Under the pieces are notes generated by a model. It had not been told where the DNA came from. It made no database searches and saw nothing but the letters and a program-made list of their open reading frames with translations. Shown piece by piece: positions 37,320 through 43,407 of a DNA stretch of 58,190 nt. The DNA comes from Escherichia coli (lineage in GTDB: Bacteria; Pseudomonadota; Gammaproteobacteria; Enterobacterales; Enterobacteriaceae): the NCBI RefSeq assembly GCF_003334255.1, contig NZ_QOWU01000031.1; one strand, given 5' to 3'. Position 1 is the stretch's first letter, and each line of letters opens with the position of its first letter. The position numbers were made by a program, and so were the translations under genes.

Positions 37320-38210
37320 TTAATACTCGAGAATGCCGTGCGCGACGGGCAAATAGCGCAGAGAGAAATAGAGAGTGTCTTTACCGCAAGAGGAACGTTT
37401 CGCTAACAGCGAGGCAATTTCTGCGTCCGGTTTCGGTTTCGCTGTAAAGGTTTTGCCTTTGCCGGCGACAAAAAGTTCATAAACAACGCCGCTGGCAGGG
37501 GCGGGACTTTGGCAATCGGCGCTGGCCTGTAAATAACGTTCACGCTGTTCAGCGGTCAGTTTATCCACGCCGCTGCCATCCTGTACCCAGACATTAACGC
37601 CGGTTGCTTTAACGTGTTCCAGCAGTTGGCGATAGCCATCGGGCGACATGTTTCCGGCGAAAAAACTACTGATATAAACCGGTTTTGCTGAAACATCGCT
37701 AATCAGCCGCTGCGCGTTGTTTAACCATGTTAGCAAAGGCTGACGGGCGGCTTCGCTGCGCCAGTTCAGGTCGTCAATTTCCGCGCTGATGTACCAGCCA
37801 TCCGGCGTTATGCCAGGCGCGGCGCTCCATAATCTGGCTTGCTGGAGATCGGCAGCCAGCAGGCGATTAAGATAGCTTTCCAGCGCTGCGGACGACTGTT
37901 TCTGGTGCATAAAAAATTCCGGATCGGCGTTCAGCCCGACAATAAGCTTCAGACCAGCCTGTTGCGCAGCTGCGGCCCGCTTAAACAATAACGTGCGCTG
38001 TTCTGGCTGGGTAAATGCATCGCCGTAACGGGTCCATTGCAAAACAAGGGTATCGAAGCCTTGCAAACGTAACTGACTCATCAGCCCCTGCCACTGGGTA
38101 TCGGTAACCTGACTATCTCGGTTTTGTGGTTGCCAGATAATACCTTTCATCGCAAAGGAAAAAGGGCTGACCAAAAGCAGTGTCAGCAATACGAAAATGA
38201 ACTTACGCAT
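37320..38210 (-). CDS. ybcH: Exported protein of unknown function
   Basis: 296-aa ORF with a cleavable-looking signal peptide (MRKFIFVLLTLLLVSPFSFA). Its start abuts the nfrA stop (38210/38211). Confidence 0.8.
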   Translation of the reverse strand: MRKFIFVLLTLLLVSPFSFAMKGIIWQPQNRDSQVTDTQWQGLMSQLRLQGFDTLVLQWTRYGDAFTQPEQRTLLFKRAAAAQQAGLKLIVGLNADPEFFMHQKQSSAALESYLNRLLAADLQQARLWSAAPGITPDGWYISAEIDDLNWRSEAARQPLLTWLNNAQRLISDVSAKPVYISSFFAGNMSPDGYRQLLEHVKATGVNVWVQDGSGVDKLTAEQRERYLQASADCQSPAPASGVVYELFVAGKGKTFTAKPKPDAEIASLLAKRSSCGKDTLYFSLRYLPVAHGILEY

Positions 38211-41204: not shown

Positions 41205-43407
41205 CCTGTTCTGTGTTTAAACCTGCTTTGAGTAATAGTGATTGCATCGAAACTTGTAATTCGCGTTGAATTGTCAGGACGCGATCCAACGTTTCCTGGC
41301 TGATAACGCCTTCGGTGACCAAAAACTTGCCGAGCGGCAGAGAACTGCGTTCATGGCGCAATAACAACACGTTAATTGCTGAACGATTAATATGACCGAG
41401 CGTGGTCAGTATTTCGGCGAACAGGAACTGATGCGGCACATATTGCCGCCAGATTTCACCGGCCTGCTGTTCCGTGAGCCACTGATGCTGAACCGCATTG
41501 TACAACATTGCCCGCGGATCGTGACCGCGTCGGCGTGCATACCAGTGACGTAACCCTGTGACAATTTGTCCCCGCAGAACAATGACGTAACGCACTTTGC
41601 GTCCGACTTTACGCGTCAGGGCCGCCAGCGAAACCGGGTCAATACCATCTTCACTGCCGACAATTAACTCGTCATTTTCCAGACGCAGCGGCAGTACCGC
41701 ATAATGCAGCGCCACGGAGGCCGGCATTTCGGCAATCAGCGAGGAAGGGATCTGCCAGGCATCGATGGATTCCCACGCCACGCCGTTTTGCTCTGCCAGC
41801 GCCTGTGCCAGCTGCTCGGCGCTAATCAGCCCCTGCATCAGCATTGAACCGCCCAGGCGTAGACCTTCGACGCGATTACGCAGTGCTGTATCGAGTTGTT
41901 CTTCAGTGATGACCTGATTTTCCAGCAGAATTTGACCTAACGGGCGCAACGAGCGGGTATCGCCAGTCACGCTGGGGAAGTCATGCGTTGTTTTATCCCA
42001 CGCCACGCGACGTGGATCGCCGTGTTGAAGTACCTGTTTTAGCGCGCGCCAGTTGGCCATGAAGTTAATCAGGTTGCCCCAGAAAAGACGCAGGACGGAA
42101 AGCAGCCCCTGCGTCAGGCCGTAGTAGCCAGTAACGAAAATCACCCGCTGCACGATGCGGTTAACCATCAAACCAAAGTTTAGCCACAGCAGGGTCATTA
42201 ACCATGCGCTGCCGCTGAAAATAGAAAGGAAATGCCAGGCATCGGGCCACAAACTTTCATACGCCAGCAACAGCAAAAGCTGGATCATCACCAGCATCGC
42301 GAGGAAGCTGACAAAGTTACTGATTGCCCCTTTGCGGTCGCGCCAGAGAAAGTAGTTCAGCGTCAGGCTGGAGGTCCATTTATGGGTTTTAAAGCCTTGG
42401 AAAACAATGCCGATGATCCAGCGGGATTTTTGTCGAACCGCAGTCGAAAAGGTATCGGGGAAATATTCGCGCACGCAGATCATGTTTGATGTCCGCGCGT
42501 GCTGTAAAAATTTACGCTGCTCGCGTTCTTTGGCTTCGTCCACCACCGGAAAACGGACAAAAATTTCCGTCATACCTTTTTCTTTCAGGCGGAAGCCAAT
42601 GTCGTAATCTTCAGTAAGACTCTGCACGTCGAAAGCAATACCGTCACCGTCAGCTAACAGTGCGGTCACGGCGCGGCGGCTGAAACAGGTGCCGACGCCT
42701 GCGCTGGGCACTTGTCCGGCGAGGGCTTCACGCACCGGAACATCTTTGCCATGCAGCTCTGAAAACTCATCAATGTAAGTCATGCTGGTGAAGTGCGTCC
42801 ATTCGCGTTCGAACGGATACACCGGGATCTGAATCAGATCTTTACGCTCGACCAGATAGTTGAACAGACGCAATTCCATCGGTGAAATCACATCTTCGGC
42901 GTCATGCAGAATAAAACCAGCAAAAGCGAAATTGGCGCTACGCTCAAATTGGGTGATGGCGTCCAGCACGTTGTTCAGACAGTCGGCTTTGCTGGTGGGG
43001 CCAGGACGCGCGCAGACTACCTTATGCACATTCGGGAAGCGAGCGCACACTTCGTCAACATCACGCTGAGTATCGGGGTCGTTGGGGTAGGTGCCAACAA
43101 AGATATGATAGTTTTCGTAGTCGAGCGTGGTCGCCGCCAGCTCGGCCATATTGCCGATGACGCCCGTTTCATTCCACGCCGGAACCATAATCGCTAACGG
43201 TTTTTCATCTGGTTTATACAGTTCGCGGTAACTCATTCGCGGGTAGCGGCGATAAACACTCAACTTGCGTTTAATGCGGCGTACCCAGTAGACGACATCA
43301 ATAAAAAAATCGTCCAGCCCGCTGATGAACATGATGACCGCTAACGTTATCGCGATTACTTTTAAGCCGTAGAGCCAGGTAGCAAAAACATCAAGAAGCC
43401 AGTCCAC
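41170..43407 (-). CDS. nfrB: Inner-membrane family-2 glycosyltransferase with C-terminal MshEN-like (c-di-GMP-binding type) motifs
   Basis: 745-aa ORF. N-terminal TM helix, GT2 region with DAED motif, further TM helices, and two C-terminal motifs (RPLGQILLENQVITEEQLDTAL and LPLGKFLVTEGVISQETLDRVL). Confidence 0.85.
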   Translation of the reverse strand: MDWLLDVFATWLYGLKVIAITLAVIMFISGLDDFFIDVVYWVRRIKRKLSVYRRYPRMSYRELYKPDEKPLAIMVPAWNETGVIGNMAELAATTLDYENYHIFVGTYPNDPDTQRDVDEVCARFPNVHKVVCARPGPTSKADCLNNVLDAITQFERSANFAFAGFILHDAEDVISPMELRLFNYLVERKDLIQIPVYPFEREWTHFTSMTYIDEFSELHGKDVPVREALAGQVPSAGVGTCFSRRAVTALLADGDGIAFDVQSLTEDYDIGFRLKEKGMTEIFVRFPVVDEAKEREQRKFLQHARTSNMICVREYFPDTFSTAVRQKSRWIIGIVFQGFKTHKWTSSLTLNYFLWRDRKGAISNFVSFLAMLVMIQLLLLLAYESLWPDAWHFLSIFSGSAWLMTLLWLNFGLMVNRIVQRVIFVTGYYGLTQGLLSVLRLFWGNLINFMANWRALKQVLQHGDPRRVAWDKTTHDFPSVTGDTRSLRPLGQILLENQVITEEQLDTALRNRVEGLRLGGSMLMQGLISAEQLAQALAEQNGVAWESIDAWQIPSSLIAEMPASVALHYAVLPLRLENDELIVGSEDGIDPVSLAALTRKVGRKVRYVIVLRGQIVTGLRHWYARRRGHDPRAMLYNAVQHQWLTEQQAGEIWRQYVPHQFLFAEILTTLGHINRSAINVLLLRHERSSLPLGKFLVTEGVISQETLDRVLTIQRELQVSMQSLLLKAGLNTEQVAQLESENEGE

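Follow-up and report, generated by a model that had tools for sequence, protein, structure and literature searches.

A second MshEN-type motif pair in NfrB and a putative glycoside hydrolase-like fold in YbcH, encoded by the c-di-GMP-switched nfrB-nfrA-ybcH operon of Escherichia coli

The nfrB-nfrA-ybcH locus at positions 37320-43407 of a 58,190-nucleotide (nt) stretch of Escherichia coli DNA (contig NZ_QOWU01000031.1; this whole stretch is referred to as the window) belongs to the Nfr system, for which two mBio papers of 2021 described a surface sugar that is switched by cyclic di-GMP (c-di-GMP), made and exported by the Nfr proteins and used by phage N4 (PMC8669469, PMC8669472; PMC10211494 is a further source for this mechanism). 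The nfr genes form an operon, whose expression is post-exponential and needs FlhDC and FliA (PMC8669469). In the published mechanism, c-di-GMP binding to NfrB and the glycosyltransferase (GT) active site of NfrB are both required for N4 infection. [quoted passage not shown] The active-site mutations D169A, D267A and W330A abolish N4 infection at an unchanged protein level (PMC8669469, PMC8669472), and the MshEN mutants L490A and G491L lose N4 sensitivity (PMC8669469); G519S was also among the mutants tested against N4. The specific c-di-GMP source is DgcJ, which interacts with NfrB (PMC8669469), and the sole wec gene needed is that for WecB, which supplies UDP-N-acetylmannosamine (UDP-ManNAc) (PMC8669469). 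The product, named the N4 glycan receptor (NGR), is postulated to be a ManNAc polymer, and the same model was reached independently (PMC8669472). NfrA is the outer-membrane exporter and also contacts the phage; it was modeled as tetratricopeptide repeats (TPRs) plus a 16-stranded barrel (PMC8669472). At high c-di-GMP, motility is impeded by the Nfr system (PMC8669469, PMC8669472).

In the Bcs system (BcsA-PilZ, BcsC and BcsZ), the c-di-GMP sensor is PilZ and the hydrolase belongs to GH8, and in the Pga system (PgaCD, PgaA and PgaB), c-di-GMP is sensed at the PgaC/D interface and the hydrolase belongs to GH153. In contrast, the Nfr sensor is of the MshEN type and the candidate hydrolase is a DUF4434 protein. 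Compared with both systems, Nfr is also without a deacetylase or a BcsB-like subunit, and its substrate is presumed to be ManNAc-based. The locus of the window does not differ in any gene from the Nfr system of E. coli K-12 (Junkermeier & Hengge 2021; Sellner et al. 2021), being the same locus with equal gene lengths, 14-nt overlap and annotation. According to the open reading frame (ORF) listing of the window, positions 37320-43407 are exactly filled by three co-directional ORFs:

41170-43407, minus strand: nfrB, GTG start, 745 amino acids (aa); inner-membrane processive family-2 glycosyltransferase (GT2) with a cytoplasmic C-terminal c-di-GMP receptor region (NCBIfam NF008411)
38211-41183, minus strand: nfrA, ATG start, 990 aa; exported outer-membrane protein (NCBIfam NF007302)
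41170-41183, minus strand: overlap of the nfrB stop and the nfrA start, 14 nt, ATGAAGGAGAATAA
37320-38210, minus strand: ybcH, ATG start, 296 aa; exported DUF4434 protein, predicted (β/α)8-barrel glycoside hydrolase

The overlap, for which PMC8669469 gives the same figure, suggests translational coupling of nfrB and nfrA, and the ATG of ybcH directly follows the TAA of nfrA without a gap. The three-gene module with a frame overlap and an abutting ybcH start, as read in a first-pass annotation of the sequence, is thus found at the limits given there; in the mechanical ORF list, the nfrA frame was extended to an upstream TTG at 41204. All three proteins passed the curated equivalog cut-offs and covered the whole profiles, with 1332.7 bits for NfrB (cut-off 1170), 1889.5 bits for NfrA (cut-off 1223) and 520.4 bits for YbcH against NF007404 (cut-off 344). 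The DNA of the 6.7-kb region was 100% identical to that of several strains, E. coli K-12 MG1655 among them, the RefSeq annotation placed the three genes at the limits read here, and at least 80% of the region was held by 5047 of 5426 complete E. coli genomes. The gene identities and the domain logic proposed earlier (i.e., GT2 plus MshEN, a TPR outer-membrane partner and an exported third protein) agree with these results and with the Pfam matches given below, and the proposed links of NfrA/NfrB to phage N4 and to a c-di-GMP-controlled polysaccharide, as well as the proposed c-di-GMP binding to the C-terminal region of NfrB, are all in the two 2021 papers. The locus is therefore nfrB-nfrA-ybcH, already characterized and the type example of the system published in 2021, and the earlier interpretation is right but out of date. 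Its view of the locus as under-characterized holds in part: the mechanism has largely been published, while the searchable literature, which omits most subscription journals, gave no settled polymer structure, native role or biochemical function of YbcH, and nothing on the structure or biochemistry of NfrB or YbcH that postdates these papers.

Our additions are modest, namely a second MshEN-type unit in NfrB, a repeat-mediated loss of the c-di-GMP site, and a GH-A-like YbcH with the residue pair E144/E245. Neither the second motif pair nor the hydrolase-like fold of YbcH is described in PMC8669469 or PMC8669472. The explanation in which we have considerable confidence is that the locus encodes a c-di-GMP-switched, synthase-dependent exopolysaccharide machine in which YbcH would act as a glycoside hydrolase and the second NfrB unit would take part in the switch.

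The C-terminal region of NfrB contains the following elements:

41788-41943, minus strand: first c-di-GMP motif pair, residues 489-540 (motif I, 489-512; motif II, 517-540), the published binding site, matched by NF053729
41524-41784, minus strand: C-terminal α/β subdomain of the MshEN domain, residues 542-628 (Pfam PF05157, E 9e-14; PilB, PilF and MshE chains matched in the Protein Data Bank, PDB)
41266-41424, minus strand: second MshEN-type motif pair, residues 662-714 (degenerate motif I', 662-685; canonical motif II', 691-714), with an exact 24+5+24 spacing
41179-41250, minus strand: third unit, a helix-turn-helix at residues 720-743 (modeled helices 721-727 and 732-744), separated from motif II' by a 5-residue spacer

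Residues 489-628 of NfrB have the sequence and modeled fold of an MshEN c-di-GMP receptor. The first unit scored 51.5 bits against the c-di-GMP motif model NF053729 (cut-off 38). In the AlphaFold2 (AF2) model of residues 458-745 (predicted local distance difference test, pLDDT, 90.5; predicted template-modeling score, pTM, 0.84), the first pair forms helices at 490-496, 502-510, 518-524 and 530-541 in a short-long-short-long order, and this four-helix unit plus the domain following it matched c-di-GMP-bound MshE (5htl) with a TM score of 0.75, as well as GSPII-B of PilF. NfrB 489-628 therefore resembles V. cholerae MshE and GSPII-A/B/C of T. thermophilus PilF in sequence and modeled fold, and the motif unit occurs more than once in NfrB, as it does in PilF. 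In contrast to MshE and PilF, the NfrB domain is joined to a glycosyltransferase rather than to a secretion ATPase, and its second unit has one degenerate half-site and is not followed by an α/β subdomain. The two MshEN-like copies noted in the first-pass annotation are thus real, and the second agrees with the proposed residues 680-710; the first lies at 489-540 instead of 470-500, and each copy is itself a tandem pair.

Each 24-residue motif binds half of c-di-GMP (Wang et al., 2016). When scored against the 11 specified positions of the relaxed motif of Wang et al. (2016), the median over 68 sequences was 10 of 11 for motif I, 11 of 11 for motif II, 7 of 11 for motif I', 10 of 11 for motif II' and 4 of 11 for the third unit, compared with a background mode of 3-4 for 24-mers of the GT domain. 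The spacer between motifs I and II in E. coli NfrB is four residues rather than five. Several comparisons point to the second pair as a genuine relative of the first. The fragment 629-745 alone scored 46.4 bits against NF053729 (E 2.5e-12; cut-off 38 bits) and matched T. thermophilus PilF at E 6e-8, in register with c-di-GMP-bound GSPII-B; in 2000 shuffles of NfrB, a simple 11-position motif score of at least 10 was reached in two. An alignment of the two pairs by hhalign gave a probability of 97.8% (E 7.7e-13) over 52 columns in register, and a hidden Markov model of the first pair found the C-terminal part of NfrB in 68 of 68 sequences, as did the reverse search for the first pair. The second pair is kept in all 67 NfrB homologues, which span four proteobacterial classes, and its modeled helices (663-669, 675-685, 692-698 and 704-717) repeat the pattern of the first. 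All 11 relaxed positions are satisfied by half-site II' in 28 of the 68 sequences, and with the strict motif II' ranks first in conservation among the four motifs (median 10 of 11). Its ligand-contacting positions (L-G, G, L...L and Q) are retained in 94-100% of the sequences. The second pair thus most likely contributes to the c-di-GMP switch, as judged from sequence and modeled structure, either as a weaker second ligand site or as a partner surface that is engaged or released by the first site. A helper role in regulation, for example as a partner surface, in dimerization or in the docking of DgcJ, seems to us somewhat likelier than a true second ligand site.

On the other side, half-site I' never satisfies all 11 relaxed positions (0/68) and is without Arg at position 1, with Gly at position 3 in 40% and a Gln-type residue at position 24 in 21% of the sequences. 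Pfam gave no MshEN match on residues 629-745, with a weak match to DUF4388 instead, so the second pair rests on the NCBIfam model, the profile-profile comparison and the PDB matches. Moreover, G491L in the first pair already abolishes N4 infection (PMC8669472), and the second pair therefore cannot substitute for the first. These points would suit a second pair that is the structural relic of an internal duplication, which no longer binds nucleotide and serves as a dimerization, auto-inhibitory or DgcJ-docking helical bundle. The same would apply to the third unit, which follows the second pair, is at background level in sequence and may be a remnant of a longer repeat array, and to the pTM of 0.84, which suggests that the tail and the first domain are packed together into a single body. 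Set against a relic are the conservation of the ligand-contacting positions of II', which is more than helix packing alone would need, and the score of the fragment 629-745 above the cut-off of a curated c-di-GMP motif model. Given this balance, we consider the chance that the second pair is such a relic to be about even. It should be noted that NfrB414-745, the construct behind the published Kd, contains both motif pairs, and the measured binding is thus not assignable to one of them.

In addition to the motif pairs, we noticed an exact direct repeat that brackets the 225 nt encoding the first pair:

41771-41783: copy 1 of the 13-nt repeat, TCCCACGCCACGC on the plus strand
41996-42008: copy 2 of the 13-nt repeat, at a spacing of 225 nt

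A natural NfrB allele of 670 aa has lost exactly residues 472-546, so that the first motif pair is missing in full while the remainder, with the second pair, is retained; its deletion runs exactly between the two repeat copies. The junction occurs in two backgrounds, which are 100 and 98.4% identical to the window, suggesting from these sequences that the 225-nt deletion is recurrent. The allele was indexed in 823 blocks of the assembly collection, and exact 37-nt junction queries found it in 1 + 5 of the 5426 complete RefSeq genomes. In about 370 of these complete genomes, the match to region 37000-43700 was partial (<80%), and a similar number were without the 225-nt motif segment. Both nfrA and ybcH are intact in the four loci of 98.4% identity that were inspected, and nfrA is frameshifted in the genome of 100% identity. 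The 670-aa allele would seem to reflect repeated loss of the c-di-GMP switch in a single step, with selection by phages as a possible cause. In a second variant, indexed in 1231 blocks, an island encoding VgrG, DcrB and PAAR/DUF6531 (Rhs N-terminus) lies between cusS and nfrB (L090 and L091, 4591-10807). Here the reading frame of the PAAR ORF continues into nfrB at about codon 45, and the resulting "NfrB" of 1268 aa has neither its first hydrophobic segment nor its native promoter. The window has the uninterrupted cusS-nfrB form.

YbcH matched Pfam DUF4434 (PF14488) at E 1.8e-69 over residues 21-291, which answers the domain search proposed for it in the first-pass annotation, and the family was matched by all 71 aligned homologues. 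A search of 1.84 billion cluster representatives gave 448 relatives at E ≤ 0.001. The features on which our reading of YbcH depends are:

37779-37781, minus strand: codon of Glu144, at the C-terminal end of β4 (138-146 in the model); candidate general acid/base; Glu in 217 of 217 full-length homologues
37476-37478, minus strand: codon of Glu245, last residue of β7 (241-245); candidate nucleophile; Glu in 209 of 211 ungapped homologues
38151-38210, minus strand: signal peptide, MRKFIFVLLTLLLVSPFSFA, then MKG; Ser -3 and Ala -1, immediately ahead of β1

The AF2 model of YbcH (pLDDT 95.8, pTM 0.92) shows a (β/α)8 barrel whose strands span residues 22-26, 54-57, 88-92, 138-146, 178-183, 206-210, 241-245 and 278-282. 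In the alignment of the 71 sequences, whose identity goes down to 25%, seven columns were invariant (Q27, Q58, W59, G92, E144, E245 and F247), and, besides the two Glu, almost all conserved residues (Q27, Q58, W59, G92, D147, S181, Q210, D211, G212, F247 and F282) lie at strand C-termini, on the face of a TIM barrel that carries the catalytic site. The nearest fold neighbor was BT_0435 (PDB 4h41; score 20.2), a structural-genomics entry of DUF4434 labeled "putative alpha-L-fucosidase", followed by a GH164 β-mannosidase (17.2), a GH5 β-mannanase (17.0), a β-amylase (16.8), the glycoside hydrolase domain of PgaB (16.6), a GH42 enzyme (16.6) and a GH113 β-mannanase (16.4). Among the fold matches listed, 60 of 60 were carbohydrate-active TIM barrels (one of them a Klotho pseudoenzyme), and the nearest were mostly β-mannan enzymes of clan GH-A. 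The profile of the YbcH homologues also reached 4h41 by sequence (E 2e-4), with GWYLPxEI aligned to GWYISGEI, a match not obtained with the single YbcH sequence, which found nothing meaningful in PDB. The matches of YbcH in AFDB50 were confined to unannotated DUF4434 proteins, and the literature on DUF4434, BT_0435 and 4H41 gave nothing relevant, with no activity reported for any DUF4434 protein.

The gene context of YbcH is strongly conserved. For this comparison, we used the closest 80 of 245 matches among contigs of one genome per species, which describe the YbcH-like subfamily and not all DUF4434. The order nfrB-nfrA-ybcH on one strand was found in 69 of the 70 loci with enough upstream DNA, and nfrA was directly upstream of ybcH in all 10 loci with short upstream DNA, the nfrA-ybcH junction being usually abutting or overlapping. 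The loci cover Enterobacterales, Xanthomonadales, Burkholderiales, Neisseriales, Aeromonas, Pseudomonas and Thalassospira, and the order is unchanged in relatives from metagenomes with 26-30% identity. A wecB-like epimerase gene is adjacent in 39 of the 69 complete three-gene loci, 35 directly upstream of nfrB and four directly downstream of ybcH. The sole exception among the 70 loci is Luteimonas panaciterrae, in which the YbcH homologue is not preceded by a recognizable nfrB and nfrA. We also observed a distant metagenomic version (L003, 2697-8873; L004, 1675-7851), which consists of an epimerase, a 487-aa GT2 protein without MshEN, an 899-aa TPR/NfrA_C protein and a DUF4434 protein; thus, the core of synthase, exporter and DUF4434 protein exists without a c-di-GMP sensor.

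Because of the fold, the conserved Glu pair and the strict synteny, YbcH most likely serves the Nfr system as its periplasmic glycoside hydrolase rather than as a scaffold, as far as the sequence and the model allow. It would be exported by Sec and would probably be a soluble periplasmic hydrolase, with Glu144 as the putative acid/base and Glu245 as the putative nucleophile. Its N-terminus has a basic n-region, a hydrophobic core and a Pro at -6, and the homologues have the same n/h/c layout, ending in SQA, ANA, SFA, AAA, ASA or AQA before the conserved FYQPQ strand. Given Ser -3/Ala -1 and the recurrence of these AxA-type triplets, we infer that the signal peptide of YbcH is cleaved, contrary to the view of PMC8669469. 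Two other assignments were rejected, that of a lipoprotein as there is no Cys near the N-terminus of E. coli YbcH, and that of a deacetylase as the fold is not CE4-like. GT2 enzymes are inverting and on a UDP-α-sugar give β-linkages, and the enzymes of clan GH-A are retaining β-glycosidases, for which the Glu(β4)/Glu(β7) layout is typical; YbcH would thus cleave or trim a β-linked nascent polymer. The frequency of β-mannan enzymes among the modeled fold neighbors fits a substrate of manno configuration. Accessory hydrolases or lyases (i.e., BcsZ, the C-domain of PgaB, PslG, PelA and AlgL) are regular components of synthase-dependent systems, and their deletions are often mild. By analogy, the mild and non-essential phenotype of ybcH would fit an accessory trimming role.

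Several observations weigh against a hydrolase. The barrel and the Glu residues at the ends of β4 and β7 in the model are as in clan GH-A, but the Asn that precedes the acid/base Glu in this clan (N-E-P type) is absent, position 143 being Ala in E. coli and variable among the homologues (A 107, E 35, D 25, L 18). No Pfam glycoside hydrolase family was matched at E ≤ 0.001 in the 71 homologues, the best match being that of one member to Cellulase at E 0.056. On account of these two results, YbcH is described here as GH-A-like and is not filed as a member of the clan. Compared with BT_0435 (4h41) and with GH5, GH113 and GH164 enzymes, the identity of YbcH is only 7-15%, and the N-E dipeptide at the acid/base position is lacking. 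The first-pass annotation had asked for an effect of ybcH on the phage or the polymer; in the published work, N4 still plates on the ybcH deletion, the motility block of a pdeH ycgR strain is only partly relieved by it (PMC8669469), and a 2025 preprint of droplet random barcode transposon-site sequencing (RB-TnSeq) lists ybcH as a partial contributor with a moderate fitness effect. As ybcH is dispensable for N4 plaques, any hydrolase role of YbcH is accessory.

The authors of PMC8669469 considered YbcH a membrane-anchored scaffold without a signal peptidase site, and in the form found in the literature YbcH would be a non-catalytic periplasmic scaffold or chaperone with an uncleaved signal anchor, which bridges NfrB and the TPR domain of NfrA or binds the glycan. 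While the dispensability of ybcH and the absent Asn agree with such a protein, two Glu that are invariant at the ends of β4 and β7 over 217 sequences, down to about 25% identity, would be unexpected in a scaffold, as would the placement of nearly all invariant residues on the catalytic face; the Ser -3/Ala -1 N-terminus and its recurrence in homologues argue for cleavage rather than anchoring. We therefore regard a scaffold as unlikely.

The remaining parts of the machine are those of a polysaccharide synthase and its exporter:

42262-43200, minus strand: GT2 domain of NfrB, residues 70-382 (Pfam PF13632, E 2e-40; PF13641, E 6e-35)
42607-42615, minus strand: TED of NfrB, residues 265-267, intact GT2 signature
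42418-42432, minus strand: QKSRW of NfrB, residues 326-330, intact GT2 signature
38253-38759, minus strand: NfrA_C domain of NfrA, residues 809-977 (Pfam PF13283, E 1e-67), part of the predicted β-barrel pore (barrel from the models of PMC8669472)

With D169 within HDAED, the D..D, TED and QxxRW signatures and hydrophobic segments at residues 4-42 and 360-388, NfrB has the features of a processive, BcsA-like family-2 synthase. NfrA has an N-terminal signal peptide (…STSALA/DN), TPR matches (Pfam TPR_19 and TPR_14) at residues 60-124 and 612-688, and a C-terminal barrel according to the models of PMC8669472, as in the exporters of synthase-dependent exopolysaccharide systems. The pre-2021 view that NfrA and NfrB are protein receptors or injection factors for N4 only, with no polymer, has the historical interpretation on its side and a contact of NfrA with the N4 tail sheath, but it is highly improbable and already effectively refuted by the infection defects of D169A, D267A and W330A at unchanged protein level, the required supply of UDP-ManNAc by WecB, the impeded motility at high c-di-GMP, the intact GT2 signatures of the window and the epimerase gene adjacent in 39 of the 69 complete loci.

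The signals around the operon were less informative:

43408-43556, minus strand: spacer between cusS and nfrB, the presumed promoter region of the operon

A σ70-type scan found no site in this spacer and three sites across the 6.7 kb, where 5.6 were expected. The best match to the σ28 consensus (TAAAGTTT-N10-12-GCCGATAA) was 11 of 16 positions and lies inside the end of cusS; this score was reached about 150 times in the window, which is chance level. The FliA dependence of the operon, reported from a reporter fusion (PMC8669469), is therefore tied to no sequence element. A scan for terminator-like sites found none 3' of ybcH, where an AGGTAAG/CTTACCT inverted repeat without a T-run is present. 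In an Rfam scan of 36000-44000, tRNA-Arg (argU) was the sole match, with no other structured RNA family.

Downstream of ybcH, fimZ, the tRNA-Arg(TCT) gene argU (36254-36330) and envY are contiguous (35379-37137 of the window), and the DLP12 prophage and ompT, which separate them in K-12, are absent. The strain of the window is thus not K-12, despite its 100% identical nfrBA-ybcH. A 1.9-kb fimZ-argU-envY query was matched over at least 80% of its length in one place in 2450 of the 5426 complete genomes, a few of these matches being interrupted by an insertion sequence (IS). A 70-aa ORF with a GTG start (37194-37406, plus strand) runs antisense to ybcH at its 3' end and to the spacer between ybcH and envY. 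Its equivalent was called as a gene, without a Pfam match, in one public assembly (L091, 14571-14783), and it is probably a gene-caller artifact.

When the readings of YbcH and NfrB are joined, YbcH would found a new glycoside hydrolase family (DUF4434), as a retaining endo-β-N-acetylmannosaminidase that trims or releases periplasmic poly-ManNAc and so sets its chain length and display, and NfrB would read c-di-GMP via two units. We put this combination forward tentatively, as a possibility that falls short of an even chance. If true, the two MshEN-type units would form a cooperative or two-threshold switch that natural 225-nt deletions disable in one step, and the polymer whose chains YbcH would size, and whose display on the surface it would set, would be a receptor for N4 as well as other phages.

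The glycan receptor NGR, on which phage N4 and several further groups of coliphages depend, is supplied by this operon. The operon also serves as a model of local c-di-GMP signaling, and its re-identification here adds nothing. The E144/E245 prediction, together with the genetic context, gives DUF4434 a candidate substrate and makes YbcH a potential tool enzyme for isolating and sizing the NGR polymer. Given the conserved second pair, the published Kd, obtained with both pairs in one construct, and the allosteric model may need revisiting. That natural alleles in which NfrB has lost its c-di-GMP site or its N-terminus recur suggests repeated inactivation of the receptor pathway under pressure from phages, which bears on the prediction of host range in phage therapy.

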